A stretch of 64,000 bases of DNA from an uncultured archaeon (GTDB lineage Archaea; Hadarchaeota; Hadarchaeia; Hadarchaeales; Hadarchaeaceae), in the NCBI GenBank assembly GCA_937921735.1, contig CAKZTQ010000032.1:32169-96168 (forward strand), in the 5' to 3' direction. Each line of letters opens with the position of its first letter. The stretch's first letter is position 1. Of the stretch, positions 9,799 through 60,637 are shown piece after piece. The position numbers and the translations under genes were made by a program. The notes under the pieces were generated by a model. That model had not been told where the DNA came from and did no database searches. It was given only the letters and a program-made list of their open reading frames with translations.

Positions 9799-10392
9799 TT
9801 ATCGATGGGAAAGTTTTGCGTAGCGCTTGTCGAGTTCTTCTACCAGCTCCTTTACCTCCTTGATTTCGGCAGCGTAGGGGCCTAGGTCTGCGTGCACGGC
9901 TCGCCAGAGCTCGTCTAACTCGCGCGCGCGATTTCCACGTTCTCGATACTTAATAGCTTGAATTAGCATAGAGAGATAGTCAGCCGCGTGGACGATCTTC
10001 GCCTCAAAGGTGTACTTCTCCGAGTACTCCCGCCAAAGTTCCATAAGCATTTGTTGATTGGGCAGACCGGCGACGAGATCCCTCATCGCCTTGCCCTCCA
10101 TTTGTTTCTTAGTTCCGGGTTCCCCCAAATACTTCAAAGCCGTGTAGGGAAAGTCCGCAACCATCGCCTCTGCCCAGTCATGCAGAAGCGCCATGCTGAG
10201 GGCCCTTTCGACATCTAGCTCGCGGCCGCCGCGCTTTGCCTCGTCCGCTAGCAGGAGCGCGATCGCCGCTACCTCAAAGGTATGCTGTGCAACGTCTTCG
10301 ACTTCGTTCAATGGCACATTGCACAGCAGCCAACCCGTTCGGGGTATACGCTTGAGGTCGTTAAGTTTTTCCAAAAGCTCGCTCAGTTTCAA
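9799..10392 (-). CDS. HD-domain hydrolase (YfbR/HDDC2-like 5'-deoxynucleotidase)
   Basis: LKRIPRTGW, VAQH, LLHDWAE, HAAD motifs. Confidence 0.85.
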   Translation of the reverse strand: MKLSELLEKLNDLKRIPRTGWLLCNVPLNEVEDVAQHTFEVAAIALLLADEAKRGGRELDVERALSMALLHDWAEAMVADFPYTALKYLGEPGTKKQMEGKAMRDLVAGLPNQQMLMELWREYSEKYTFEAKIVHAADYLSMLIQAIKYRERGNRARELDELWRAVHADLGPYAAEIKEVKELVEELDKRYAKLSHR

Positions 10393-10793
10393 ACTACCAC
10401 CAACTTAGCCTGCTTAACGCCCCGCATGGCTCCGATGCGGTCGACAAGCTTGCGGATTTCGTCCGCCGCTCCTTTCACGACGATGATCTCTAGGCAATTC
10501 TTGGCATCGACGTGCAAGTGCTGGGCGGCGCTTATCACCTTCGAGTGCTGGTGCTGGATGTCCATGAGTTCGTCCACCAACCCCCTGACGTCGTGCTCGT
10601 AAAGCACCATGATGGCCCCCAGCTGCTCACCCTTCAACTCGCTCCTCCACTTGTAGTTCGCCAAGAAATCGCGAAGGGCGTCCCTAATGGCTTCCGAGCG
10701 GCTCGCGTAGCGTTGAGCCCTAAGCACGCGATCGAGTTCGTCGAGCAGCTCACAAGGCAGGGTGAGGCTTATGCGAGCTATTCTCGAAGACAT
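10389..10793 (-). CDS. nikR: nickel-responsive transcriptional regulator NikR
   Basis: RHH domain (RISLTLP...SRSEAIRDA), YEHD, IQH, HLHVDAKNCLE (His/His/Cys Ni site); start may extend to 10826. Confidence 0.92.
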   Translation of the reverse strand: MSSRIARISLTLPCELLDELDRVLRAQRYASRSEAIRDALRDFLANYKWRSELKGEQLGAIMVLYEHDVRGLVDELMDIQHQHSKVISAAQHLHVDAKNCLEIIVVKGAADEIRKLVDRIGAMRGVKQAKLVVV

Positions 10794-10843
10794 GATGGCA
10801 CGATTGAATTTGCAAGATTTGGACATTTATGTTTTGCCGAAAC

Positions 10844-11139: not shown

Positions 11140-11466
11140 CTACCTACGGATACCCAATCTCGTTTCCATCGTCTTTATCAAGTTGAGCCGCGGGGCGATC
11201 GTCAGCATGCCTGTCCAAAGGAGAGTGCATGCTAGGGCCATTGGAACTCCGATCCGAACCATTTCCGGCAGGACTTCAGATAGTCCGGCGGTCAAGAAGG
11301 GCGGATATGGCACGATTTCTCCGTGAGCTAAATGTTCGACCGCCAACATCGCCACGCCGCCCCACAGTAGAGCGTTTAGCCAGTTTATGTTGTACCTCGT
11401 CGGGAACTTTTTCCTGAACAGCGTGGTTATCGCGCCCAGCGCCATGGGAACGAGGAAACAAGCCAC
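11140..11466 (-). CDS. small 3-TM membrane protein (MACFLVP...), candidate Ni-transporter subunit A
   Basis: GTG start at 11466 after SD GAGGTGA; motif LWGGVAMLAVEH; three hydrophobic segments. Confidence 0.72.
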   Translation of the reverse strand: MACFLVPMALGAITTLFRKKFPTRYNINWLNALLWGGVAMLAVEHLAHGEIVPYPPFLTAGLSEVLPEMVRIGVPMALACTLLWTGMLTIAPRLNLIKTMETRLGIRR

Positions 11467-11486
11467 CCTTTCACCTCTTGCTTTTT

Positions 11487-11514
11487 GTAATACTTTTCCA
11501 TATTTAAATATTAC
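11487..11514. promoter_or_regulatory. NikR-type operator GTAATA-N16-TATTAC overlapping a minus-strand TATA box (TTTAAATA, 11508-11501)
   Basis: Perfect 6-bp inverted repeat with a 16-bp spacer, the geometry of the E. coli NikR site GTATGA-N16-TCATAC; directly upstream of the operon containing nikR. Confidence 0.8.
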
Positions 11515-11601
11515 CAATTCGATAGTAAAGCGCCAAAGAATTTTGCAGCCCAAAAGAAAAGGCATAAATTGACGAAAATCCACCGTAATCCGGTGAGGTG
11601 A

Positions 11602-11868
11602 ATGGAAAAGGAACCTGTTGAGAAGAAACTCGTAGGAAAGGTTACCCACTACTTTACGAGGATTGGGGTAGCAGTCGTTGAGTTGACAGACGAGTTAAAG
11701 ATAGGCGACAGGATTTCCATAGAGGGCGCGACCACGAATTTTCAACAGGTAGTGGGCTCCATGCAGATCGAACATAAAGACGTAAAGGTCGCTACGGCTG
11801 GGCAATCGATAGGTCTGAAGGTCGACCAAAGGGCACGTGAAGGGGACCTCGTCTACAAGATCCTTTAA
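11602..11868 (+). CDS. small beta-barrel protein (translation-factor domain II / peptidase U32 C-terminal-like)
   Basis: VGKVTHYFTRIGVAVVEL...SMQIEH...GQSIGLKV...REGDLVYK pattern. Confidence 0.75.
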   Translation: MEKEPVEKKLVGKVTHYFTRIGVAVVELTDELKIGDRISIEGATTNFQQVVGSMQIEHKDVKVATAGQSIGLKVDQRAREGDLVYKIL

Positions 11869-12737
11869 GCGGTTAGATCTAGCTTAAAAAGCAGGATTTT
11901 CGCCTTTCTTATATTTTCGGGAAGATTTCTGCAGTTCTTACAAAGGCCCATAGTTTGGGCGATCAAATCGCGATACCCTGAGAACTTCTCCTTTTTTTCC
12001 AGTATTCTGTCTAAGGTTCTCTCGAGTTGGGGGGTCGGCGCGAAAGTACTTCCGCATGCTGAGCATCGCCGCAGCTCTATCTTGGCTTCAGCCCCGATCG
12101 CTTTTCTATCCCCAGTTGCTCGTGGGCGCTCGGCCCCAAGCTCCACTGCCTCCTCCGGGCAGGCCTCCTCGCAGGAGGCACAGGAAATGCACTTTTCGTA
12201 TCTGAACCTCACCTTTCGTTCGTTGCCTTCGTCGACCATCTCTATTGCTCCAGTCGGACAAACCTGCACACAGGCCCCGCATCCGGTGCACTTCTCCGCG
12301 TCGATATTGGGCATTCCCCGAAAGCCACCGGGCACCTCCCAAGCTTTTGACCCCAGCTTTAAAACGTCAACGAGAGCCTCGACGATGGCGTGAGGGCTTG
12401 GAGGACACCCAGGCACATATGCGTCCACGTGAATTATTTCGTCCACCATGCCGTCCACGCTATAAGAGCCCTCGAAGGCCTCGCCGGACAGGGCACAAGC
12501 GCCGACCGCGATGGCTAGCCTCGGCGGCTTCAACCTTTCGTATACTTCTCTGAGCATATCTCGCGTCTTGACCGTCGGTACCCCTGTGACGATGAGCACG
12601 TTGGCCTCACTTGGGTCCCCGACGAGCTTTACCCCCAGCTCCTCTAACCCGAACCTTCTCGCAAATGCGCTGAACACTTCGATGTCACATCCGTTGCACG
12701 AGCCTACGTCCAGACGATAAACGTTGACCTGCCTCAA
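11865..12737 (-). CDS. group-4-type [NiFe] hydrogenase small subunit (NuoB/HycG-like) fused to a 2x[4Fe-4S] NuoI/HycF-like domain
   Basis: GSCNGCDIE, VGAC, VPGCPP; two CxxCxxCxxxCP motifs; C-terminal CxxC...CxxC. Confidence 0.88.
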   Translation of the reverse strand: MRQVNVYRLDVGSCNGCDIEVFSAFARRFGLEELGVKLVGDPSEANVLIVTGVPTVKTRDMLREVYERLKPPRLAIAVGACALSGEAFEGSYSVDGMVDEIIHVDAYVPGCPPSPHAIVEALVDVLKLGSKAWEVPGGFRGMPNIDAEKCTGCGACVQVCPTGAIEMVDEGNERKVRFRYEKCISCASCEEACPEEAVELGAERPRATGDRKAIGAEAKIELRRCSACGSTFAPTPQLERTLDRILEKKEKFSGYRDLIAQTMGLCKNCRNLPENIRKAKILLFKLDLTA

Positions 12738-13873
12738 ACCCCTCTCCTGAGCTCCGACAGCTCCACCTGATGCTTTTTTCCAGTTCGTTGATCTACGAGC
12801 GTCAGACGATTTGTGCAGGAGATGCAGCGGTCTATGCTTTCTAAAATCAAGGGAAGGTCACTTAACCTCTGTCCCCGCAACATCTCAGGGAGGCTGCGCT
12901 CGTTCATGTAGGTGGGCGTTCTGATCTTTACCCTCTCAGGGATGTTCGTGCCGTTCGACTTGACGAAGTAGATCAATTCGCCTCGCGGCGCTTCCACCCT
13001 CCCAACCTCTTCCTTTTCCTTTGGCGGCTCGCCAACTTCGGCCGCGATGTTGCCGGATGGGAAATCGTCTAATAGCTGCCGTATGATCTCGATGCTTTCA
13101 AAAGTTTCCTTTACCCTGACAAGCGTTCTCGAAAGCACGTCTCCCCCGTCCTCCACCTGCACCTCGAAGTCTACCTCTTCGTATGCGGCGTAGGGATCGT
13201 CCTTGCGAACGTCGCTCTCAACGCCGGATGCCCTCAAAACGGGCCCCACGACACCTAACGCCAGCGCTTTCTCCCTTGGCAATGGGCCTATCCCCGAAAG
13301 TTTCGGGGCAAGTTCCCGCGTGGCACGGGCGATGTACCCTGAGAGGCTTGTTAAATCGTCTAGCGCGTGTCTAAGTCTTCTGATCATCTCCACGCTTAGG
13401 TCCCCCCTCACCCCACCTATCGCGTTGATCCCATAATGGACGCGGTTGCCGCACATCAGCTCGATCAGATCCATGATTTCCTCCCGCGCATCGACGATTT
13501 TGATGAAATGTTCCTTTTCGCCGAGGGTGTGAAACAGTAACGCGGTCCATAGATAATGGCTCTGGAGCCGCTCAAGTTCAAACATAATCGTTCGAATGTA
13601 CTTGGCCCTCTCCGGTGGCTCAACCTCGAAGACCTTCTCTACGGTTTGACAGTAACAAGTGGTGTGGGCATGTGAGCAAAATCCGCATATCCGCTCGCAT
13701 AGGAAAACGCCTTGGGCATAGGTCTTTGTGGCGAGGAGCCTCTCGATGCCCCTATGCGTGTAACCTTGCTTTATGTCCACGTCGACGATCTTCTCGTTGC
13801 TCACCGTAACTTCGTAGAGTTCGGGCTCTACCAAGGCAGGATGATAAGGACCTATGACTACTATTTTCGACGT
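12734..13873 (-). CDS. group-4-type [NiFe] hydrogenase large subunit
   Basis: GPYHP, GYTHRGIE, L1 ERICGFC, EAPRGE, L2 DRCISCTNR plus a C-terminal extension; no ATG/GTG/TTG upstream of GPYHP, so start placed at ACG 13873 (track gives TTG 13834). Confidence 0.88.
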   Translation of the reverse strand, partial: TSKIVVIGPYHPALVEPELYEVTVSNEKIVDVDIKQGYTHRGIERLLATKTYAQGVFLCERICGFCSHAHTTCYCQTVEKVFEVEPPERAKYIRTIMFELERLQSHYLWTALLFHTLGEKEHFIKIVDAREEIMDLIELMCGNRVHYGINAIGGVRGDLSVEMIRRLRHALDDLTSLSGYIARATRELAPKLSGIGPLPREKALALGVVGPVLRASGVESDVRKDDPYAAYEEVDFEVQVEDGGDVLSRTLVRVKETFESIEIIRQLLDDFPSGNIAAEVGEPPKEKEEVGRVEAPRGELIYFVKSNGTNIPERVKIRTPTYMNERSLPEMLRGQRLSDLPLILESIDRCISCTNRLTLVDQRTGKKHQVELSELRRGV

Positions 13874-13876
13874 ACG

Positions 13877-14743
13877 CTACACCCCCATTTTCTCGATCAA
13901 CTGTGAAATGGGGCTGCGGTGGAACTCGAGCTTGAGCTCGTTTGTAGGGACGCCCACCGCCAAAGCCAATAACTCAACTATGTGGAGGCACGGAAAGTTG
14001 TATTTCAAGCCATATTTCCTTAGCGAGATCTGGCCCGTCTCAAACTGGAGGATGCACATTGGACAAGCGGTAATGATGCCGTCAACCATAAGTTCCTCGT
14101 AGCATCTCAATTTGAGGTGCAGCCTCTCTTTAAGTGCCGCTTCTTCGTTTACTTGCATCATTGGGAATCCACAACACATGCGATCTAGTTTGCAGCTGAC
14201 CACGTCGGCGCCGGTAGCTTGTACCAGCTCCGTCAACATCCCCGGTTTTCTCCAAATGTCCCCCCCGTCGGCCTCGCGAAAGAGATGACATCCAGGATGA
14301 ACCGCAGCCCTGAACGTCAGTGGTTTGGCGATTTCCTTTATTCGGCTGATCCCAATGTCTTCGTATAGAATTTCAACGATGTGTTTCACGTTTACCGTGC
14401 CCTCATACTTTCTCCCGACCTCCGAAAGTAGTCCGTTCACCTCTTCTCTCAGTCCACTTTCTTGCTTCATCGCTTCGTTCGCTTCCCAAAGCGTTTCGTA
14501 GCACCCGTTGCACAAGGTTATGATATCCAAACCAAGTTGCTCGGCTAAGCTTAGGTTTCTAGCGGAGAGCGCGAGGGACATCCGCCTGTCGGCTAAACGT
14601 GCCACCACAGGATCTGGACAACAGGAGTAGCCGGAAAGGTCCAATACCTCAACACCTAGCCTCTCGAAAAGTTTTCTGGCTGCAAGTTCCACGCTGGGGA
14701 TCCTCTGAGGGATGAGACAACCTAAGAATAGTGCGTATTTCAT
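13877..14743 (-). CDS. hdrB: heterodisulfide reductase subunit B-like protein (two CCG domains)
   Basis: FLGC...SCCP...CNGC and HPGC...MCCG...CPMC; all ten Cys positions present. Confidence 0.9.
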   Translation of the reverse strand: MKYALFLGCLIPQRIPSVELAARKLFERLGVEVLDLSGYSCCPDPVVARLADRRMSLALSARNLSLAEQLGLDIITLCNGCYETLWEANEAMKQESGLREEVNGLLSEVGRKYEGTVNVKHIVEILYEDIGISRIKEIAKPLTFRAAVHPGCHLFREADGGDIWRKPGMLTELVQATGADVVSCKLDRMCCGFPMMQVNEEAALKERLHLKLRCYEELMVDGIITACPMCILQFETGQISLRKYGLKYNFPCLHIVELLALAVGVPTNELKLEFHRSPISQLIEKMGV

Positions 14744-14748
14744 GAAAT

Positions 14749-15405
14749 CTACCCTCGCCTCAACTTTTTCCTCTCCCAATCGTATCCTGCTTTTTTATCG
14801 AAGGCAACCCGTTTCATCAGTTCCTGAAGTTCGCGGAGTGCTTCCTCGCTCGCGTAGCTGGCAGGGGGAGATGCCGGCAGACCGGCTTCGTCTCTCTTCC
14901 GCTGCATGTGAGGTGAAAGCGGGGCGGTCGTGCCAACCGATATCAGGGACTCGGCCACCGGACATATTTTAGCAGGAAGCTCCCCCTCGAAGGGGCCTCT
15001 CAGGGGTGGACTCCCGGACCACCCCTCCGGTAATAGTAAGGGAGCAGGTCTTGGATGGGCTTTGAACCTCACTCCGAAAAGCTCAGCGGTTTCCCTCTCC
15101 GCCCACTCCGCGGCTGGCATTAAATCCGAGATGCTGTCGATTTCACTTGTTTCCTTCGCGATCACCGCGCGCAAGACCACAACTGTGCCATCGACGTCGA
15201 AGTTGTAAAGCAATTCGATGTCTAGACCTTCGTCGACGGCAGCTAGCATCATAAACCTTCCCTTATTCGATAGTATCTCGACCGCCTTCCGAATCGACCG
15301 CGGCTCGATTTCGACAACCGCCCTCCTTTCGCGAGAGTAAATGACCCTCGCCTTGACTTCCCTCGTGAGACCCTCGAGGATTTCATCCACGGCCAGATCG
15401 GTCAC
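14749..15405 (-). CDS. NuoC/EchD-like hydrogenase subunit
   Basis: ELLYNF, IDSISDLMPAAEWAERETAELFGVRFKAHP, LLLPEGW...PPLR. Confidence 0.85.
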   Translation of the reverse strand: MTDLAVDEILEGLTREVKARVIYSRERRAVVEIEPRSIRKAVEILSNKGRFMMLAAVDEGLDIELLYNFDVDGTVVVLRAVIAKETSEIDSISDLMPAAEWAERETAELFGVRFKAHPRPAPLLLPEGWSGSPPLRGPFEGELPAKICPVAESLISVGTTAPLSPHMQRKRDEAGLPASPPASYASEEALRELQELMKRVAFDKKAGYDWERKKLRRG

Positions 15406-15868
15406 CCTCTATAGCATACATGCGTCTGTTAAATTCCTCCGCCTCGGCTCGGCTTACCACTCTCAAAGCTCCGGGCGAACAATACTTCGCGCATACCGGA
15501 TCTCCATCGCAGAAATCACATTTCGCCGAAACTCGATGTTCCTCGTCGAACCATGGGCATGATAGGGGACAAGCTAGGATGCAGGACCGGCAACCAATGC
15601 ACTTCATCGGATTTATCTTCACCCATCCGCTCTCATCGCTTTTGGTTATCGCTTCCTCGGGGCAGGACGCCAAGCAAACCGGCTCCTCGCAGTGTCTGCA
15701 GTTCGTTGCCTCAAATCTCGCCACACGTTCATCGAGCGAAATATGGATGTGAGATTTAGCTGGATCTAGGGTGCCATAGTGCTGAAAAGCACAAGCTATT
15801 TCACAATATCCGCAGCCCGTGCATCGCTCTGGGTCGTAAATCAAAACTTTCTGATGGGCTGCTTTCAT
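15383..15868 (-). CDS. 4x[4Fe-4S] ferredoxin-type electron-transfer protein (CooF/HycB/DmsB-like)
   Basis: CTGCGYCEIAC, CRHCEEPVCLASCP, CIGCRSCILACP, KCDFCDGDPVCAKYC. Confidence 0.9.
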   Translation of the reverse strand: MKAAHQKVLIYDPERCTGCGYCEIACAFQHYGTLDPAKSHIHISLDERVARFEATNCRHCEEPVCLASCPEEAITKSDESGWVKINPMKCIGCRSCILACPLSCPWFDEEHRVSAKCDFCDGDPVCAKYCSPGALRVVSRAEAEEFNRRMYAIEGDRSGRG

Positions 15869-15920: not shown

Positions 15921-16166
15921 CTATGTGAGGACCTCAACCTCCGCATCTTTGACCACGGATTCAGCCGCTGACTTCACCTGTTTGACTAAATAAGCTATCA
16001 GAGGACATCCGGGGATAGTTGGCCTAAATAATATTTTAGCTTTGTCCCCCTTCACTGTTATTCCTTCGATCATCCCCATGTCAACCACGTTTATGCCGGT
16101 CTCTGGGTCTATCACATCGCGAAGCTTTTCCCTTATCTGCTCCACCTTGTCCATCCCATCGCTCAT
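15921..16166 (-). CDS. metal-sulfur cluster assembly factor (DUF59/SufT family)
   Basis: VIDPETGINVVDMGMI and PTIPGCP motifs. Confidence 0.85.
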   Translation of the reverse strand: MSDGMDKVEQIREKLRDVIDPETGINVVDMGMIEGITVKGDKAKILFRPTIPGCPLIAYLVKQVKSAAESVVKDAEVEVLT

Positions 16167-17104
16167 ACCAACTCCTCGCCTGGCCTCCACTCAAATTGCT
16201 CCTGTAGTACAACATAAGCCGCAGATGGTGGGATTATGCCTCGCTCAGTTATTATCAGGTCTATGTATTCTGGAGGAGTAACGTCGAAGACCGGGTTGCG
16301 GATTTTAACGCCGGGAAATCTCTTTGGGTTCACTATCTCATTTGGTGGTCGCTCTTCGATCTCCACCAATCTCCCGACGAGGGTGCCTGGATGGAACTTA
16401 TAGCTCTCCGCCGCCACGAAGAACAGCACCCTAGCTTCATTCGCGGCCAACGCTAGTTGGGAGGTACCAATCTTGTTTATCACCGCGCCGTTCGCTGCTA
16501 TGCTGTCGGCACCGACTATCACCTTATCGACATCTCTTATGAAGTGCCTTACCGCAGAATCGACTATCAGCGTCGTCGGGATACCGGCCCTGCTCAGCTC
16601 GCGCGCGCTTATCAATCCCTGCCTCATTGGTCTAGACTCCGTTACGAATACTTCGAGGCGTTTCCCTTGTTTAAAAGCGGTTTTGATAACAGAGAGGGCA
16701 CAGTCGCTGTTACAATGTGTCATTATTACGTCTCCATCGGATATCCTGCGCGAGCCGATCTCTCCGATCCTCTTAACGGCCTCCAGAGACGTTTTGATGA
16801 ACTCATCAGCTTTGGAGATCACCATCTTCCGCAATGTCTCCAAATCTAGGTCTTTCGATACCATAGCTTTGTGCGTAACAAATCGTATCGCATTGGGCAA
16901 CGACACAGCGGTCGGCCGCGTGTTCAATAAGAACCTAGAAACCTGTTCGAGTTCTTTCAAGAATTCAGCAGATGTCCTAGCTTTCGTTGTCTTAGCCGCT
17001 ATCTTAAGTGCCCTAGCGGCAGCTCTCGCTATCCTACCGGCCCCCCTTATTCGCATTTTTCGGATATCCTCAGCAATTTTCTCGATTTGGGCTTGTGCCA
17101 TCAT
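16163..17104 (-). CDS. e2b2: ribose-1,5-bisphosphate isomerase (eIF2B-like)
   Basis: IRGAGRIA, TRPTAVSLPNA, MTHCNS, ESRP, GADSI, NKIGTSQ, NPVFDVTP. Confidence 0.88.
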   Translation of the reverse strand: MMAQAQIEKIAEDIRKMRIRGAGRIARAAARALKIAAKTTKARTSAEFLKELEQVSRFLLNTRPTAVSLPNAIRFVTHKAMVSKDLDLETLRKMVISKADEFIKTSLEAVKRIGEIGSRRISDGDVIMTHCNSDCALSVIKTAFKQGKRLEVFVTESRPMRQGLISARELSRAGIPTTLIVDSAVRHFIRDVDKVIVGADSIAANGAVINKIGTSQLALAANEARVLFFVAAESYKFHPGTLVGRLVEIEERPPNEIVNPKRFPGVKIRNPVFDVTPPEYIDLIITERGIIPPSAAYVVLQEQFEWRPGEELV

Positions 17105-55800: not shown

Positions 55801-56412
55801 GCGGTTCACGCTTGCAGGGTTGCTGATATCGAGCGTGTAGAGCTGGAACTTGTCGCCCTCGCGGTTGGAGGAGAACACTATCTTTGTGCCGTCTGGGGAG
55901 AAACATGGCCAGCGGTCTTGATGATTACCTGAGGTCAACTGCCTTTCAAGCAGGATATACCTACGTAGAGTCGGGCTCCACATCCATCCCTCGAAGAGGT
56001 AGAGGTTGGAGAAACGTCCAGTGGTGTCAAACCGCGAGAAAACTATTTTCGTACCGTCTGGAGAAATGGCTGGTTCAACATCATCGACATTGTTGTTGGT
56101 GATCCTGACTTGGTTCTCGCCGTCGGAATCCATCGTCCAAATCTCCGATGTATTTTCCACGATTCGGGCGAAAGCCACTTTTTTACCGTCCGTCGAGGCC
56201 GAGGGCTGGAATTCCCAGAAGTCGGGACTCTTGGTGAGGTTTGTTTCCCCACCCCCGGTAGCTAAAACGACCTTGACGTCGCCCTCCTCGGAGAAGTAGA
56301 TTTGAGCAGGGGTGGCGGAATAATTTGAGGCAGGAACCGGTTGTAAATTGAACAGAAAGCTGGTCAAAAGAACAAGTAGAACTAAGGGGATAAAATCTTT
56401 TTTAACGCTCAT
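52861..56412 (-). CDS. large cell-surface protein: signal peptide, TolB/PD40 propeller, Ig-like repeats, putative papain-like Cys peptidase domain, C-terminal TM anchor
   Basis: Repeated PxxSPDGxKIxF; GGTGPYTW...LPPGL; GNCTGMS/HTVTAY/VYDPN; TM followed by KKRR. Confidence 0.75.
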   Translation of the reverse strand: MSVKKDFIPLVLLVLLTSFLFNLQPVPASNYSATPAQIYFSEEGDVKVVLATGGGETNLTKSPDFWEFQPSASTDGKKVAFARIVENTSEIWTMDSDGENQVRITNNNVDDVEPAISPDGTKIVFSRFDTTGRFSNLYLFEGWMWSPTLRRYILLERQLTSGNHQDRWPCFSPDGTKIVFSSNREGDKFQLYTLDISNPASVNRALPGVPPYTTRDQINPDWSPDGKWIACSMKTETQSDIYIADSWGPINTRRVFQLTSTSEWEISPSWSPDSREIAFIRMRSGLDGTIQELWVMKLKIENDRVQVTENKLLKDIGYTTGIFLGVFSLTARNEWMGCPSWRRLEGLRIPDVELEGRVDNSFSARLEVLGGTGPYTWTLLGTLPPGLSFSQGMKYPIDLSRLALISGTPTEAVKEHRFEVRVVDNSGLLEQRSFAITVRPRQALELITAGRFLPPAVQGAKYRAQVQFSGGLPPYQVTVGSGIYGKDLPDGLTWTRSVSGDQLTVRFNSPDNGLPSGRYKVKVQVFDNFGDSAAGLFDLHVLRMEWNIRDIFGENLNAFVWGLPEILTENFINGLSIEAEGIEVSLPISGIAIGAGGEYHTVVAPYPRDFSPWRSLFTPGQSTVIGKLKLKVNLDGNENSVTTGFPLHGYMFRRDRGFSFPNFSSGPIGFEQFADFFGWDETTSWTPWGRVPRFIPWLLWNVIPIGRGGNCTGMSVSAYDIAEDIARTSWEDHPNLPHAASKNLGLAEPDEGLEDYIRKRQWWIVSTEFIRRFSTIIPARSNWNRWSSKMLEDIGGSGLPCYVAMFKDHTGGAHTVTAYAMEDLPDGRKLIRVYDPNKPFSYTETSDDNSAIYIDPSRGNSWTYKMSNGEEWGNDWILTIPVSLLRGDPDLPGLEDLPELIADWTFLALIGSAEPTQMADNEGHQSFTTEGGLNINPATGMPYCLPIPLPAEGANSSVRLFYAPPKSHQIEVFGRESGKYDFLYMPMDGMLMTFDVETSAGSKDSITFRPRELSTTFSTPDSKKFSYKLVREFEKERTARMFTLDNIKTHSGNITFSTTPEGDAVIVRNDGAATYYDLRVDYLAENETLQSFEHKNIFLGGGETQRVTPTSWKGMSTGEVNVEIDRGSDGSWDENIQLKSEKPEGKPPEERPPEAKPKPEVIIGIGLVVVIVAGLAVFLKKRR

Positions 56413-56470
56413 ATGTTCTTTTATTTTTCTTGAAATAAAATATAAACGTTTTGTCAACATTTCAGCGAGC

Positions 56471-57230
56471 TCATTTTCTTTTGAGAATACTTCTTTTGTT
56501 CCCCTTTTCCGGAAAATTTGATAATCGGCAGTGGTAACTCGTGATGCTCGCTTTGCCCTTTGGTGCTAAGCTAGGATCGGCATTTGAGTTAATGACAATG
56601 TCGTAACCCTCATCGAGATTCTTGATGAGCGTTGGGTATCCAAATAAGTTCAAATCTACTCCCAAGAATACAGCGAAGCAAGAGGGAGACATCTTCAAAT
56701 TCTTTACGTACCCAATAATCTTACCATTCAAGTCCCTTTTTCCAACAGTTCCAAAAAGTGGTCTTCGCATTTGCGTTGGACACGATAGGACTTCTGAAAG
56801 TTTTTTGTCTCCAACTCTTACCCCTTTAACTTCCCCTCCTTCAACAATTATTTTGTCCACTTTATGATCGACTAAGACCTTCCCGCCGTTAAGCTCGATT
56901 GTTTCTTTAAACCTTGTTTGCAAATCTTTACACCCCTCCTTTTGGAAAATGCCCTCCTTGCAGGTAATAGGAAACGCATCGGTAAGTCGCTGGCCGCAAG
57001 AGTTAGATCCATTAAATTGAAGTCCTTCTTCCAAATTTGAGACGTCACGAGAATCAAAGAAATCGTGAGAGGAATGGTTACGCCTAATTCGTCTCCCATG
57101 CCGCACAAAACCCATTAAAAAATCCAAGGAACGAAGGAAACGAGTATATAACATGCCGGGAATTTTCTTTCCATCCTAAATCCCTAATCGTTCATCTGAC
57201 CACAAAACCATCTTATCGAGCTGTTAGCAT
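56471..57230 (-). pseudogene. degraded phytoene-dehydrogenase-like FAD oxidoreductase
   Basis: Fragments IELNGGKVLV..KVDKIIVEGGEVKGV, MSPSCFAVFLGVD, DPSLAPKGK interrupted by out-of-frame segments; no N-terminal Rossmann motif. Confidence 0.6.
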
Positions 57231-57275
57231 GAAATCAAAGGAGAAACTAGATCAGAGAGAAGAACTAAAATCTAG

Positions 57276-57395
57276 TGCCCCGGGCGGGATTTGAACCCGC
57301 GTCGCCGGCTTTCCTCACCAGTGCACGAAAGGCCGACATGATTGGCCTTTGGACAGAGGCGCTGCCCAAAGTTGGCCCGTCTACACCACCGGGGC
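57276..57395 (-). tRNA. tRNA-Glu(TTC) with two introns (21/22 at 57371-57342; 37/38 at 57325-57311)
   Basis: Removing the 30-nt and 15-nt BHB-bounded introns gives a 75-nt cloverleaf GCCCCGGTGGTGTAGACGGGCCAATCATGTCGGCCTTTCGAGCCGGCGACGCGGGTTCAAATCCCGCCCGGGGCA; no encoded CCA. Confidence 0.9.
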
Positions 57396-57555
57396 ACATG
57401 CTGATGTTTCATCCAAAGGGATAAAATACCTGACGCAGCTTGAGCTGCTGAGTATGGGGCATTTCGCTGTAAAAATTTTAACCCAAACCCAAACTTACAA
57501 TTCAAAGCTTAAAAAATAATGCATAGTAGAACGATAATAAAGTTGTGATATTTGA

Positions 57556-57950
57556 ATGAGAAAACTTGAAGAAATAGTCGAAGAAGTTACATGGATTTAT
57601 TCCCAGAGCAGTAATCAAGCCGAAGAATATATACTCAAAGCCAGAAAATTAACGGAAAAATTTGGCTCAGGCCTAGCGATAGTTTACTGTTGGTTTTACT
57701 CAATTCCCCAAAAATGGACTCAAGTTGAGCCTAAAATCTTTGAATTAGCGAAGGAAACAAACTTTTTAGACTTAACGCCATTTCGACGATGCCTAAGGAA
57801 AAACTAGAAACCTGTTGGATTTTTCGAGAGAGATAACTAACAGATTAGGGAAAAAGGGTTTAACGATGTTTCCATGATCAAATGGTCGCTTACGATATGG
57901 TTCGATAAAACAAACATTCATGCAGATGAGCTATTGAGGTACGTTATACA
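57556..57950 (+). pseudogene. frameshifted/degraded gene remnant
   Basis: 83-aa ORF that loses protein-like character near 57770; protein-like fragments follow in other frames. Confidence 0.4.
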
Positions 57951-58079
57951 TTTCAACTTCTTGATTTTTCTTGATTTATTTAAGGGAGCCTCCAGCTGCT
58001 TCGGATTGCTACATTTTAACGTCAAAATTAGGAAATAAAAAAAATTAAAACTTATAATTTCCATCATATCATTGATTAG

Positions 58080-59027
58080 ATGATTGGAATGAAGGTATTC
58101 CTTGCGTCTGGCTTCTTTAAGAACATTAAGAGAAGTGTTATGGATGGTGTGAAGGCCGATGAACTAGAGGTTAGAGACCACTTGCTTAAGGAGAAAATTC
58201 TCAAATACTATGGTGATGGCCCAATCAAGCTGTGGGCTTTGAAGGAGCCTCTTCATGATCGCTGGGCCTCCATCGATGAGGAGGATTACGTATTATTCTA
58301 TCATGCGGGCAAGTTTATCTATGTTGGCAGGGTATCCTTCAAATATCCATTTGCTGAAGAAAATAAGCAAATAAAAGCTGGCGGTTATTTAGCGGAAAGT
58401 GTTTGGGGTAGGGATGTTAACGGCGAAACTTGGCCCCTCCTCTTTTTCTTGAAAGATGTAAGGGAGATAGATCTACCCTTATCTAAACTCAACGAGTTGG
58501 CAGGATATAACTTGACGTCTGTAAGGGGATTTATGAAGATGCAGGAGAAGAAGGGTCAAAATGTTATTGAATATTTGCAGCAAGTTTACCTTAAACCTCC
58601 TGTTAAACCTCCGGCTAAGCCCTTAGAGTTAATCCAGCACGATGAGATAGTTGATGCTATCTATGCTCTTGGCGAGCTAATAGGATATAAGCCTGAAAGG
58701 AAATGGAGGCATAAAAGGTATGAGTTCGATGTCGTATGGCACAAGCCTCCTAGGATCGGCCCGAAATATGTGTTTGAAGTCCATGTAAAGGGAAGCTTGG
58801 AGAAAGCTCTACTAAGGCTTAAGCATGCCTATGACTTGTGGGAATCTCAAATATTTCTAGTCTCGACAGAAGATCAGCTTGAAGAGGCCCAATCAAAATT
58901 TCTAGGCGAGCTTCACGAGCTTAAAGACAAAGTGACCCTCCTAAATATAAAAGACGTCGAAGAGTTTTACGGTTTTAAAGGAAAATTCGAGTGGCTTGAG
59001 AGGAAGTTCGGATTAAAACCGACATAA
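58080..59027 (+). CDS. EVE/PUA-like domain + PD-(D/E)xK nuclease
   Basis: WAL...W.SIDEEDYVLFY..GKFIYVGRV...WPLLFFL (EVE-like); HDEI...G...FDVVW...FEVH nuclease motif. Confidence 0.6.
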   Translation: MIGMKVFLASGFFKNIKRSVMDGVKADELEVRDHLLKEKILKYYGDGPIKLWALKEPLHDRWASIDEEDYVLFYHAGKFIYVGRVSFKYPFAEENKQIKAGGYLAESVWGRDVNGETWPLLFFLKDVREIDLPLSKLNELAGYNLTSVRGFMKMQEKKGQNVIEYLQQVYLKPPVKPPAKPLELIQHDEIVDAIYALGELIGYKPERKWRHKRYEFDVVWHKPPRIGPKYVFEVHVKGSLEKALLRLKHAYDLWESQIFLVSTEDQLEEAQSKFLGELHELKDKVTLLNIKDVEEFYGFKGKFEWLERKFGLKPT

Positions 59028-59041
59028 ATATTTCGGATGAG

Positions 59042-59081
59042 AAATTTTTACCCCTTGCCTTTGGGTTTGGGGTAAAAATTT
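59042..59081. terminator. 13-bp inverted repeat downstream of the nuclease gene
   Basis: AAATTTTTACCCC-N14-GGGGTAAAAATTT. Confidence 0.4.
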
Positions 59082-59347
59082 TAACCCTTAAAGAAACAAA
59101 ATATATTTTGGTAGACACTAAACGAGGAACCATAACAACGAAACCGGTAGACAACGACATCCATCCCCTTACTCGAGTTCCTCGTGGGAAACGGTGGAGA
59201 GTCATTCGAACGAATAAGAACAACCAGTGAAGGCATGGGAGATAGCCAAGGAGACGGGACGAGCTTTGGGTATGAGGTTTTGTGGCAGGCGAGGAGAGAG
59301 GGCGTATTACCATCATCCAAACCCGGGAGACCACGCAAGGTGAAGCC

Positions 59348-59701
59348 ATGACGTATTGGAAATGCAAGGAATGCGGGAGGATCTGGCTCGAGGAGGTGCC
59401 CCTAAATTACGAGAGATGTCCCTTCTGCGAGGCATCACCGAACTTCGAGAGGGTCGCGAATCCGAGCAAGACCGACCTTCCCGATCAAAAGGAGATCCTG
59501 AGGTATCTCTCGAATCATGGGGGGTCGTCGACCAACGACGAGATGTATCGGGAGAAGTTGGGGGATGTGGGGAGGGGCTGGGACACGATACAAAAGCTCA
59601 AGAAGTTGGCGGACGAGGGGAAGGTAAGACGGGAGATCCAGCACATCTTCCAAGGAGGGAGGTGCGTGCGGACGATAATCAGATGGAGTTCGGTCTCTTA
59701 G
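59348..59701 (+). CDS. zinc-ribbon + winged-HTH protein
   Basis: WKCKECG...CPFC, then QKEILRYL..HGG...LKKLADEGKV; SD AGGTGA. Confidence 0.6.
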   Translation: MTYWKCKECGRIWLEEVPLNYERCPFCEASPNFERVANPSKTDLPDQKEILRYLSNHGGSSTNDEMYREKLGDVGRGWDTIQKLKKLADEGKVRREIQHIFQGGRCVRTIIRWSSVS

Positions 59702-59822
59702 TCAACGTGTCAATCGCAATATCCGCTTTTTCTTTCCAATTAAAAAGAGGTAAAAATCGGCTTAAATTCTCAAAAATTCGGTTATCAAACGATTTAAAAA
59801 GGAAAATCCTAGTTTAAATTTG

Positions 59823-59985
59823 TGAAAGTTCAATTAATTCATGAAAATCGACTTAACTCGTGAAAAATATGGAAAAACCCGGAAAAATTCAACTTGATTC
59901 CCAAAAATTCCTGGTTAATTTGAAAAATCCCATTAATTCTGAAAAAATTCGACTTAATTCTCGAAAAATTCGTGAAAAAATCCGG
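59823..59985. repeat. degenerate ~20-bp tandem repeats with phased A-tracts (consensus about GAAAAATTCGACTTAATTC)
   Basis: About 8 imperfect units starting near 59823, 59842, 59861, 59882, 59902, 59922, 59941 and 59963. Confidence 0.55.
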
Positions 59986-60148
59986 TTCGGGAAAATCCCG
60001 ATCAATTGGTACTTAGCCATGTGAACGGGAAAAATTATCATGAAAAGCCGGAAAATTTAAAAATAAATATGATAAAAATTGGGAAGTTAAAATTTTATTG
60101 AGTCCAACAACTACAATTAAGGAACAAGTTGAAACTGGGGGAATAAGA

Positions 60149-60307
60149 ATGAACAAGTGTGGGATTTGCGGGAAAGGGGGCGACGATGTTAGTTTGCTCT
60201 TTGCCCACCATCGAGAATTGGGAGGCGTTTGGCTTTGTGGTGATTGCTGGAAGAAGGAATACCACAGGATATTGTCCTCTGGTGGATCCGGTAGCTGCTG
60301 CGGATAA
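60149..60307 (+). CDS. small zinc-finger protein with a C-terminal CCG
   Basis: CGIC...WLCGDC...GSCCG. Confidence 0.55.
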   Translation: MNKCGICGKGGDDVSLLFAHHRELGGVWLCGDCWKKEYHRILSSGGSGSCCG

Positions 60308-60330
60308 ATAAGAAATGAAGATGACCTCGA

Positions 60331-60637
60331 ATGATTGAAATCAAGCCCCTAAATACTCGGTCAGGAGCTGCAGTAGGTGTTGAGATAAGAAACCCAGAAG
60401 AGCCTAAAAAGCCAGCTATCATAGTGGTAATAGCGAAGAGGGAGTCTTTTGGTCTGCGGTAACTTTGACATAAATGAGCTTGAAAAAAGAAATGTAACCG
60501 CAGCCAGAATAGTTGGCTTAACGAAAATTGAAGATGTTCTGCAAAGAAATGTTGTTTCTGTCGCATCGCTGGCTAAGGCTTTAGGCGTCAATGTGGGCAT
60601 GTCTGGCAGCGATGCTCTTGAGAAAATGAACGTCTAA
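60331..60637 (+). pseudogene. YunC (DUF1805) family gene with a 1-nt frameshift near 60440
   Basis: MIEIKPL...IIVVIAKR in one frame continues as LVCGNFD...AARIVG...LGVNVGMSGSDAL in another. Confidence 0.65.

Follow-up and report, generated by a model that had tools for sequence, protein, structure and literature searches.

A candidate soluble, HdrB-linked group-4 [NiFe] hydrogenase encoded by a conserved five-gene cassette of Hadarchaeota

Membrane anchoring and ion translocation are the defining traits of group-4 [NiFe] hydrogenases, which are regarded as the ancestors of complex I. Can the peripheral arm of such an enzyme act without a membrane subunit, and to what would it then deliver the electrons of H2? 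The question is raised by five genes in a 64,000-nucleotide stretch (the window) of an archaeal genome of the Hadarchaeales (GenBank GCA_937921735.1, contig CAKZTQ010000032.1, positions 32,169 to 96,168). The genes are tightly packed on the minus strand at window positions 11865-15868, each junction being an overlap or a gap of at most 42 nt, and encode, in this order, a CooF/HycB/DmsB-type ferredoxin (15868-15383; 161 aa; Fer4_11, 5.5e-16), a NuoC-like protein (15405-14749; 218 aa; PF00329, 1.2e-21 over residues 31-140), an HdrB (14779-13877; 300 aa as listed; two PF02754 (CCG) domains, 1.8e-27), a NuoD-type group-4 [NiFe] large subunit (listed open reading frame (ORF) 13834-12734; 366 aa from a TTG codon; PF00346, 5.8e-63, and the N-terminus of PF00374, 2.6e-15) and a NuoB-like small subunit fused to a NuoI/HycF-like domain with two [4Fe-4S] motifs (12737-11865; 290 aa; PF01058, 2.2e-23; Fer4_7, 3.9e-15). 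A first-pass annotation, made from the DNA letters alone, had read them as a group-4 hydrogenase operon with an embedded ten-cysteine HdrB and no membrane subunits. The operon, its coordinates and parts, the two nickel-binding CxxC pairs and the C-terminal extension of the large subunit all held up, and an HdrB-wired group-4 hydrogenase free of membrane subunits is still the best reading of the locus.

Cysteine conservation was assessed in alignments of each window protein with eight orthologues (9 sequences). In the large subunit, both nickel-binding pairs, C50/C53 and C337/C340, are invariant in all nine sequences, and C337/C340 is followed by a C-terminal extension of 22-26 residues; the best solved matches are HycE (7z0s_E, 286 bits) and MbhL (6cfw_L, 270 bits). 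The NuoB-like part of the fusion protein, about residues 1-128, keeps C14, C17, C81 and C111 (one proximal cluster) in 9/9, and so does the NuoI part its eight cysteines in two Fer4 motifs; residues 132-275 match NF009053 (HycF-like). A group-4 large subunit of NuoD type with both CxxC pairs is accompanied by a NuoB-type small subunit and by NuoC- and NuoI-like parts (PF01058, PF00329 and the Fer4 motifs). The ferredoxin carries four [4Fe-4S] motifs (C16/19/22/26, C57/60/65/69, C90/93/96/100 and C117/120/126/130), and its 16 cysteines, enough for four clusters, are likewise invariant.

Two further features of these subunits were observed. Near their C-terminus, the Hadarchaeal soluble-type large subunits, that is, those of cassettes like this one, read DRCISCTNR (window 12734-12830), whereas all other aligned group-4 relatives read DPCxxCT[DE]R; this proline-to-arginine change beside the nickel ligands is invariant in 9/9 of the soluble-type sequences. 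The C-terminal 70 or so residues of the fusion protein (window 11865-12190), within the HycF-matching region, contain an extra four-cysteine motif that may bind zinc or a further cluster; three of its cysteines (C225, C228 and C269) are invariant, and the fourth, C272, is kept in 8/9.

HdrB retains all ten cysteines of its two CCG motifs (21, 53, 54, 90, 93, 164, 202, 203, 239 and 242) in 9/9 sequences, as in canonical HdrB. Its true start is probably the methionine at residue 13 (14743), where the aligned orthologues begin. The assembly has no other CCG protein. HdrB scores 274.2 bits against TIGR03288 (cut-off 345.15) and 104 against NF041780 (cut-off 450), so that the curated equivalog level is not reached.

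The C-terminal arm of HdrC wraps around HdrB in the HdrABC-MvhAGD complex, and an element of this kind was found where the first-pass annotation had reported no HdrC. The NuoC-like protein consists of a scaffold domain of approximately residues 1-145 (14971-15405, minus strand; PF00329), which matches complex I NuoC/Nqo5 chains in the PDB, and a C-terminal arm of approximately residues 146-218 (14749-14970 including the stop codon, minus strand), which has no conserved cysteine. Residues 146-216 or so of this protein match the last 65 or so residues of HdrC, both in TIGR03290 (positions 84-143 of 144, E 1.9e-6) and in solved HdrC chains (8rvu_c 119-184, E 6.4e-6; 8rvv_C, 8.7e-6; 5odc_C 120-183, E 9.2e-5). 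The fused, cluster-free arm is the only HdrC-like signal in the genome, and it is conserved in 15 aligned sequences, including Bathyarchaeota and a 'Cryosericum' record. An HdrB gene placed between the NuoC-like and large-subunit genes, together with an HdrC element, puts both inside the hydrogenase cluster, as in the Ehd-like systems discussed below.

No NuoH, Mrp or HdrA gene lies inside the five-gene cluster, and no 19-residue segment of any of the five proteins reaches a mean Kyte-Doolittle value of 1.6 (maximum 1.41); the domain search and the hydrophobicity profile thus agree with the first-pass annotation on the lack of NuoH, antiporter subunit and HdrA. The same layout recurs in related genomes: the five genes stand in identical order in 8/8 orthologous loci (large-subunit identity 50-70%), none of which has a membrane gene inside the cassette, and the flanks of these loci differ. 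In one of them, L022 (G004:C11, 7923-9433), about 1.5 kb separates the large-subunit and NuoB::NuoI genes, a possible insertion; the two genes abut or overlap in the window and in the other seven loci, any gap being of at most 5 nt. The full-length NuoC::HdrC-arm protein is found in 15/66 Hadarchaeota genomes; in the remainder, matches end near residue 140, as expected of a plain NuoC. Outside the phylum, the closest large subunits carry Bathyarchaeia or Bathyarchaeota names (53-57% identity), and a profile of the NuoC::arm protein finds some 55 full-length clusters, Bathyarchaeota among them. One full-length record (P0155, 221 aa, 39% identity) bears the NCBI name 'Candidatus Cryosericum', a bacterium, and could represent either a bacterial occurrence or a binning error.

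The NuoC::arm profile was also used to scan metagenomes; 80 loci were kept of 359 confirmed, 39 of them with an arm-bearing NuoC, and these were typed by gene order and Pfam checks. Fifteen loci are of a complete soluble type (ferredoxin, NuoC-arm, HdrB, large subunit, NuoB::NuoI), three are a variant with the fusion gene upstream of the ferredoxin gene, and 16 are cut by a contig end or not separable by ORF calling. The other five (L072, L077, L085, L086 and L088) are of a membrane-bound type, with the order (ferredoxin), antiporter-like subunit, NuoC-arm, HdrB, large subunit, NuoH, NuoI, NuoB; an antiporter subunit is present in four of these, and no antiporter gene was seen in L077. The first-pass annotation's suggestion that the operon may be related to Ehd and simpler than it is therefore well founded, since loci with the same core do carry NuoH and mostly an antiporter subunit as well. 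NuoB and NuoI are fused in the soluble type and are separate genes flanking NuoH in the membrane-bound type. No NuoH or MrpD was found in the 15 complete soluble-type loci across spans of 4.9-16.7 kb. A conserved membrane partner downstream of these loci was considered and rejected, as the neighbours vary from locus to locus. A search of sequencing runs gave no holder recorded as RNA. Contigs of two runs labelled metatranscriptomic (X4 and X7) cover the cassette of a relative about 90% identical; the runs are marked as probably DNA, and their contigs are uninformative on expression.

A quick IQ-TREE phylogeny of 65 large subunits, rooted on one long outgroup branch and read here for its groups, not for the order among them, recovered all 25 soluble-type rows as a single clade (SH-aLRT 96), within which the Hadarchaeal rows form a subclade (99). 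Groups were also formed by the five membrane-bound HdrB-linked rows (88) and by the Hadarchaeal Mbh paralogues (97), and the soluble-type clade is not nested in the five Ehd-like rows. The classification by phylogeny that the first-pass annotation had proposed yielded a well-supported clade, in a tree that fits either a derived or an ancestral soluble form.

To what could the arm and HdrB be wired? A three-chain complex of HdrB, the NuoC arm and the ferredoxin was modelled with the ferredoxin as the scored partner, the question being whether it replaces the ferredoxin domain that is missing from HdrC. The ipSAE values were 0.85, 0.83 and 0.85, the best of three controls giving 0.00, and the mark thereby passed is reached by 116/157 solved complexes and 2/215 mismatched pairs; because solved HdrB-HdrC complexes exist, the pass may partly mirror likeness to them. 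Partner pLDDT was at least 85, and contacts agreed between runs to at least 93%. The ferredoxin residues predicted to dock onto HdrB are 15-21, 24-36 and 128-136: in the model, segment 15-21 (C16, C19) contacts HdrB 200-206 (C202, C203), and segments 15-21 and 128-136 (around C130) contact HdrB 163-175 and 197-211 (C164, C202, C203). The model supports docking of the first ferredoxin cluster onto HdrB, without proving binding. The ferredoxin gene is also found with the membrane-bound versions L072 and L088, and its presence in loci of both types fits a ferredoxin that would serve as the wire into HdrB in each.

From gene content, cofactor ligands and conservation, we consider it probable that the five proteins form a single cytoplasmic complex, a free-standing peripheral arm joined to HdrB, which would act as a soluble, non-pumping H2:disulfide oxidoreductase. 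The [NiFe] site of the large subunit would split H2, and the electrons would travel, in this order, through the proximal [4Fe-4S] cluster in the NuoB-like domain, the two clusters of the fused NuoI/HycF-like domain and the four clusters of the HycB/CooF-like ferredoxin to HdrB, whose two non-cubane clusters would reduce a disulfide to two thiols. The NuoC-like subunit would be the scaffold and its HdrC-derived arm would clasp HdrB onto the hydrogenase, with the separate four-cluster ferredoxin leading electrons into HdrB in place of HdrC's absent ferredoxin domain. Ion pumping would not be expected, because there is no NuoH or Mrp-type subunit, nor would bifurcation, because there is no HdrA or flavin. 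H2 oxidation coupled to disulfide reduction is strongly exergonic by established potentials, and for this reason H2 uptake is taken as the default direction.

Which disulfide this complex would reduce was approached through co-occurrence tests in 66 Hadarchaeota genomes, 15 with the cassette and 51 without. McrA is found in 0/15 cassette genomes and in 5/51 others; as the cassette genomes lack Mcr, CoM-S-S-CoB is an unlikely substrate. GcvH is present in 13/15 cassette genomes and also in 33/51 others, and TusA in 2/15 (the window's own assembly not among them) versus 23/51; both were rejected as carriers that track the cassette. HdrA-like proteins (2/15 versus 19/51) and carbon monoxide dehydrogenase (CODH)/prismane proteins (1/15 versus 21/51) were rejected as tracking partners. 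The CODH count also led us to reject, for the cassette genomes, a CO-driven, Coo-like role of the CooF-like ferredoxin, as suggested for Hadarchaeota in the part of PMC11009646 available to us.

Several points weigh against a soluble H2:disulfide oxidoreductase. To our knowledge, the whole HdrB-linked group-4 class has been predicted from genomes alone and never purified, and the rationale of a soluble H2-to-disulfide reaction is unclear, as it would waste the free energy that membrane-bound relatives conserve. Neither of the thiol carriers sought in the 66 genomes (GcvH, TusA) tracks the cassette, and an HdrB that falls below the curated cut-offs may have a substrate other than that of canonical HdrB. 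The large subunit has no canonical start before a conserved N-terminal motif (see below), and could be poorly translated or reflect a wrong base call. Membrane genes, moreover, are common where the cassette occurs: NuoH is present in 8/11 cassette genomes tested and PF00361, the antiporter-like family, in 11/15, and in genome G016 an Mbh-type cluster stands 1.4 kb away from the cassette. The window's assembly (G000; 1.06 Mb, 60 contigs, 83% complete) probably owns a membrane hydrogenase itself, given its completeness and the presence, in the same-genus genome G001, of an Mrp-type subunit and a NuoH fragment adjoining HycI.

Of the alternatives, the opposite direction of flow fares best, and we still regard it as unlikely: the complex would be an H2-evolving valve, driven by thiols or fed through HdrB, at a low H2 partial pressure such as syntrophic subsurface fermenters maintain. 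The closest solved relatives of the large subunit, HycE of formate hydrogenlyase and MbhL, belong to H2-evolving enzymes, and the arrangement of substrate module, HycB-like, HycF-like, small and large subunits is that of formate hydrogenlyase, except that HdrB takes the position of FdhF. Cassette genomes, lacking Mcr and rarely encoding HdrA, also offer no obvious source of heterodisulfide. Thiol oxidation with proton reduction is, however, endergonic under standard conditions for most disulfide couples and would require a low-potential dithiol as well as very low H2, and no candidate dithiol carrier tracks the cassette.

A second alternative was already offered by the first-pass annotation, namely that the complex is a detachable module which docks onto a NuoH and Mrp-type membrane arm encoded elsewhere, coupling H2:disulfide turnover to ion translocation as proposed for Ehd. 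The membrane-gene counts and the G016 neighbourhood given above speak for it, as do the five membrane-bound loci that share the NuoC-arm/HdrB/large-subunit core; in addition, no insertion or deletion specific to the soluble-type large subunit, such as might be a trace of a lost NuoH interface, was seen relative to membrane-bound relatives beyond 2 C-terminal columns. Against this, the paralogous large subunit of the relatives (45-47% identity) sits in an ordinary Mrp-Mbh-type cluster (MnhG, MbhD/E, MnhB, NuoK-like, antiporter-like, FrhB, NuoB, NuoC, NuoD, NuoH and NuoI), with HycI, HypA and an HypE-like gene of the AIR-synthase family nearby; this cluster owns a complete peripheral arm (NuoB/C/D/I), so that no docking site is left free. 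Many Hadarchaeota genomes have the Mbh cluster without the cassette. Conversely, G002 (90% complete) and G003 (92%) encode neither NuoH nor PF00361, and the cassette gene is their only NuoD-type gene; the presence of membrane genes is independent of the cassette. The fusion of NuoB and NuoI, separate genes around NuoH in the membrane-bound type, and the separate clade of soluble-type large subunits also argue against docking, which is weakened to the point of being distinctly unlikely.

The genome search that the first-pass annotation had recommended bears on the same matter. In G000, the window gene is the only NuoD-type gene (PF00346) and the only [NiFe] large subunit (PF00374), and no NuoH, PF00361 antiporter-like, McrA, HycI, MvhD/FlpD or HdrA-like gene was found in what is an 83% complete assembly; HypD is present (contig C39). 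The lack of membrane genes weighs little for G000 itself, given its completeness and the NuoH, Mrp-type and HycI genes of G001. The protease HycI is encoded in the relatives G001, G003, G016 and G044, and was not found in G002; its retention in G003, which has no membrane hydrogenase genes of the NuoH or PF00361 kind, fits a C-terminal extension that is processed. As an aside on the Mrp-Mbh cluster, an FrhB-like gene stands between its antiporter-like subunit and NuoB in Hadarchaeota (L027 = G007:C1, 8152-16218; L024, 253-5349), which suggests an F420-linked membrane hydrogenase in this phylum.

We give similarly low credence to a third alternative, in which HdrB acts on sulfane sulfur or a persulfide from a TusA/DsrE relay, or on another substrate of CCG-domain proteins, making the complex an H2-dependent sulfur or persulfide reductase. 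In one metagenome locus, L061 (11757-14104), the soluble-type cassette is followed on the same strand by genes for TusA, a PF04143 sulfur transporter, two DsrE-family proteins and DsrH, which hints at protein-bound sulfane sulfur as the substrate in that lineage. The position of HdrB below the methanogen HdrB cut-off and the lack of Mcr in cassette genomes point the same way. Such a neighbourhood is nevertheless confined to 1/15 complete soluble-type loci, TusA to two Hadarchaeal cassette genomes other than G000, and the ten cysteines and overall architecture of HdrB are canonical.

The start of the large-subunit gene raises the last alternative. The first canonical start is the TTG at 13834, downstream of a conserved IGPYHPA motif. 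The motif (as VIGPYHPA) is encoded in frame upstream, at 13835-13876, directly behind the in-frame TAG stop of HdrB (region 13835-13879), so that with this stretch the large subunit spans 12734-13876 on the minus strand; the 14 codons between the TAG and TTG 13834 include no ATG, GTG or TTG. Relatives at 93% and 85% identity start with MVIGPYHPA and MAKVIVIGPYHPA, that is, within the matching stretch, and the motif is kept in membrane-bound relatives too. Where relatives P0002 and P0001 begin, the window has ACG and GTA, as judged from aligned translated sequences and not from the relatives' DNA. Among the listed differences of relatives' contigs near 13844-13875, none creates a canonical start. 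This region reads the same in the one near-identical public contig (run X1), which may itself be the source of this DNA and so not independent. The gene as read here may have an unusual start, encode a shortened protein or contain a base-call error. That the operon is decaying or poorly expressed in this genome, its large-subunit start codon having been lost, is highly improbable: ACG and GTA at the relatives' start positions and a first canonical start that drops IGPYHPA are what one would expect of it, but no stop codon interrupts the frame between the end of HdrB and the end of the gene, all large-subunit metal ligands and the other four genes are intact, the X1 contig (though possibly its source) agrees with the window, and initiation at a near-cognate codon or coupled to HdrB termination is possible.

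How does the proposed soluble oxidoreductase relate to known systems? The novelty implied by the first-pass annotation did not withstand the literature, which is cited here from the parts of each source that were available. HdrB-interacting group-4 hydrogenases are listed in PMC9723716 as Ehd (Methanomethylicia), Ehe (Culexarchaeia), Ehg (Nezhaarchaeia), Ehd-like (Bathyarchaeia, Methanomethylicia) and Drh (Methanocellales); an Ehd-like complex is also mentioned in Muzhaarchaeceae, a family of Methanonezhaarchaeia (PMC12700198), and Asgard archaea have [NiFe] hydrogenases of groups 4l and 4q with a peripheral heterodisulfide reductase domain (bioRxiv 10.1101/2024.07.04.601786). For the lineages at hand, a 'group 4g' hydrogenase of Hadarchaeota is assigned to work with CooF and CODH (PMC11009646), and hdrB2 is reported inside 'fpo' operons of Bathyarchaeia (PMC8407382), the closest description found. 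In the literature searched on Hadarchaeota and Bathyarchaeia, subscription journals and supplements lying outside its coverage, neither the membrane-free five-gene cassette nor the NuoC::HdrC-arm fusion was found described. On its gene content, the cassette would be a soluble variant of the published Drh/Ehd kind, the concept of an HdrB-linked group-4 hydrogenase being already in print.

Drh is the nearest by proposed function. This 'disulfide-reducing hydrogenase', a name credited to Lyu & Lu 2015 by both PMC6046458 and PMC9723716, is described in the available text of PMC9723716 as being without an ion antiporter subunit, such that it may reduce heterodisulfide directly with H2; like the cassette, it combines HdrB with a group-4-type cluster and would not build an ion gradient. 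It is, however, called 'putative membrane-associated' (PMC6046458), with transmembrane subunits predicted by TMHMM, whereas no subunit here has a hydrophobic segment; and its hosts are methanogens that make CoM-S-S-CoB, whereas Mcr is absent here. This comparison was made by description, not with a Drh sequence.

Ehd of the Methanomethylicia, with comparable HdrB-associated forms in Culexarchaeia and Bathyarchaeia, likewise joins a [NiFe] hydrogenase core to HdrB(C), according to the accessible parts of PMC9723716 and PMC12700198, and the five membrane-bound metagenome loci fit that description while sharing the NuoC::HdrC-arm/HdrB/large-subunit order with the cassette. Ehd differs in its NuoH-type and antiporter subunits, of which the cassette has neither, and in the ion pumping proposed for it; NuoB and NuoI are fused in the cassette, and its large subunits form a clade of their own relative to the five Ehd-like loci in a 65-row tree that holds no named Ehd, Ehe or Drh. 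The Asgard 4l/4q enzymes share, by description, a complex-I-like hydrogenase joined to an Hdr module, and differ in being Mbh-like, membrane-bound complexes.

In formate hydrogenlyase of E. coli, the chain HycB-HycF-HycG-HycE has the same layout as the cassette subunits. Besides HycE, the best solved match of the large subunit (PDB 7z0s), the likeness extends to the HycB-type four-cluster ferredoxin and to the HycF-like, NuoB-like and NuoC domains; the differences are FdhF there and HdrB here, the lack of HycC/HycD membrane subunits here, and a NuoC that is separate from the large subunit and bears the HdrC arm. With HdrABC-MvhAGD (5odc, 8rvu) the cassette shares the C-terminal HdrC arm and an HdrB whose ten cysteines serve two non-cubane clusters, but it lacks HdrA, MvhD and the ferredoxin domain of a full, 2x[4Fe-4S] HdrC; the hydrogenase there is of group 3c and here of group 4, and HdrB here scores under the TIGR03288 cut-off.

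Two further gene arrangements were seen among the metagenome loci. In L073 (11685-15433), genes for a full HdrC-like dicluster protein, a second HdrB and HypF come after a soluble-type cassette. L099 (1-9540; also L105 and L117) has a 1105-aa HdrA-like protein, HdrB, full HdrC, an FdhA-like molybdopterin subunit, a NuoI-like protein and a ferredoxin, divergent from NuoC, large subunit, NuoI and NuoB genes and with no membrane genes in view; this set resembles the published description of Ehg.

A conserved lineage that lacks any membrane subunit would demonstrate that a group-4 peripheral arm can function as a soluble enzyme, and, if the soluble form were ancestral, would show a soluble precursor of the peripheral arm of complex I. 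It would also provide a tractable, flavin-free system of five subunits for HdrB chemistry and for the HdrC-arm tether, for which Ehd, Ehe, Ehg and the bifurcating HdrABC are harder, and it points to a thiol/disulfide or sulfane-sulfur couple in abundant non-methanogenic subsurface archaea (Hadarchaeota, Bathyarchaeia). The strongest version of this proposal is that the cassette encodes the first soluble 'group 4' [NiFe] hydrogenase, from an old monophyletic lineage of Hadarchaeota and Bathyarchaeia (and possibly of bacteria, by the Cryosericota record), which puts HdrB chemistry to work on a non-methanogenic thiol or sulfur carrier; we hold this version to be speculative and on the doubtful side. 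Were it true, non-methanogens would gain a direct, non-bifurcating and non-pumping link of H2 to thiol/disulfide or persulfide redox. The surprise would be limited by the prior publication of HdrB-linked group-4 hydrogenases; any biochemical result on this class of enzyme would be new.

The neighbourhood of the operon holds some minor features. A DUF59/FeS_assembly_P gene (window 15921-16190, minus strand) lies 52 nt upstream of the ferredoxin gene and could assist maturation of a nine-cluster enzyme; this neighbour is shared by the orthologous loci L018 and L020 and is missing from the remaining six. A small hydrophobic protein of 169 aa (11140-11649, minus strand; a further ORF lies at 10389-10826, minus strand), without a Pfam or NCBIfam match and conserved at about residues 47-168, is encoded between the operon and a NikR gene. 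A role for this ORF as a membrane anchor of the cassette was rejected on the positions of its homologues, which in G003 and G004 are neighbours of NikR on the opposite strand, in G016 stand near HycI at some 5 kb from the cassette, and in L050 occur close to a ZIP permease. The ORF is not a part of the cassette; it may be a component of nickel or other metal uptake. The remainder of the window is of a housekeeping nature (A-type ATP synthase, form III RuBisCO, acetyl-CoA synthetase and translation genes), except for a stretch of low GC content at 56000-60600 (0.42-0.43 versus about 0.55 elsewhere), whose ORFs have no Pfam matches and which adjoins the gene of a 1199-aa PD40/He_PIG surface-type protein; this stretch may be of foreign or mobile origin.

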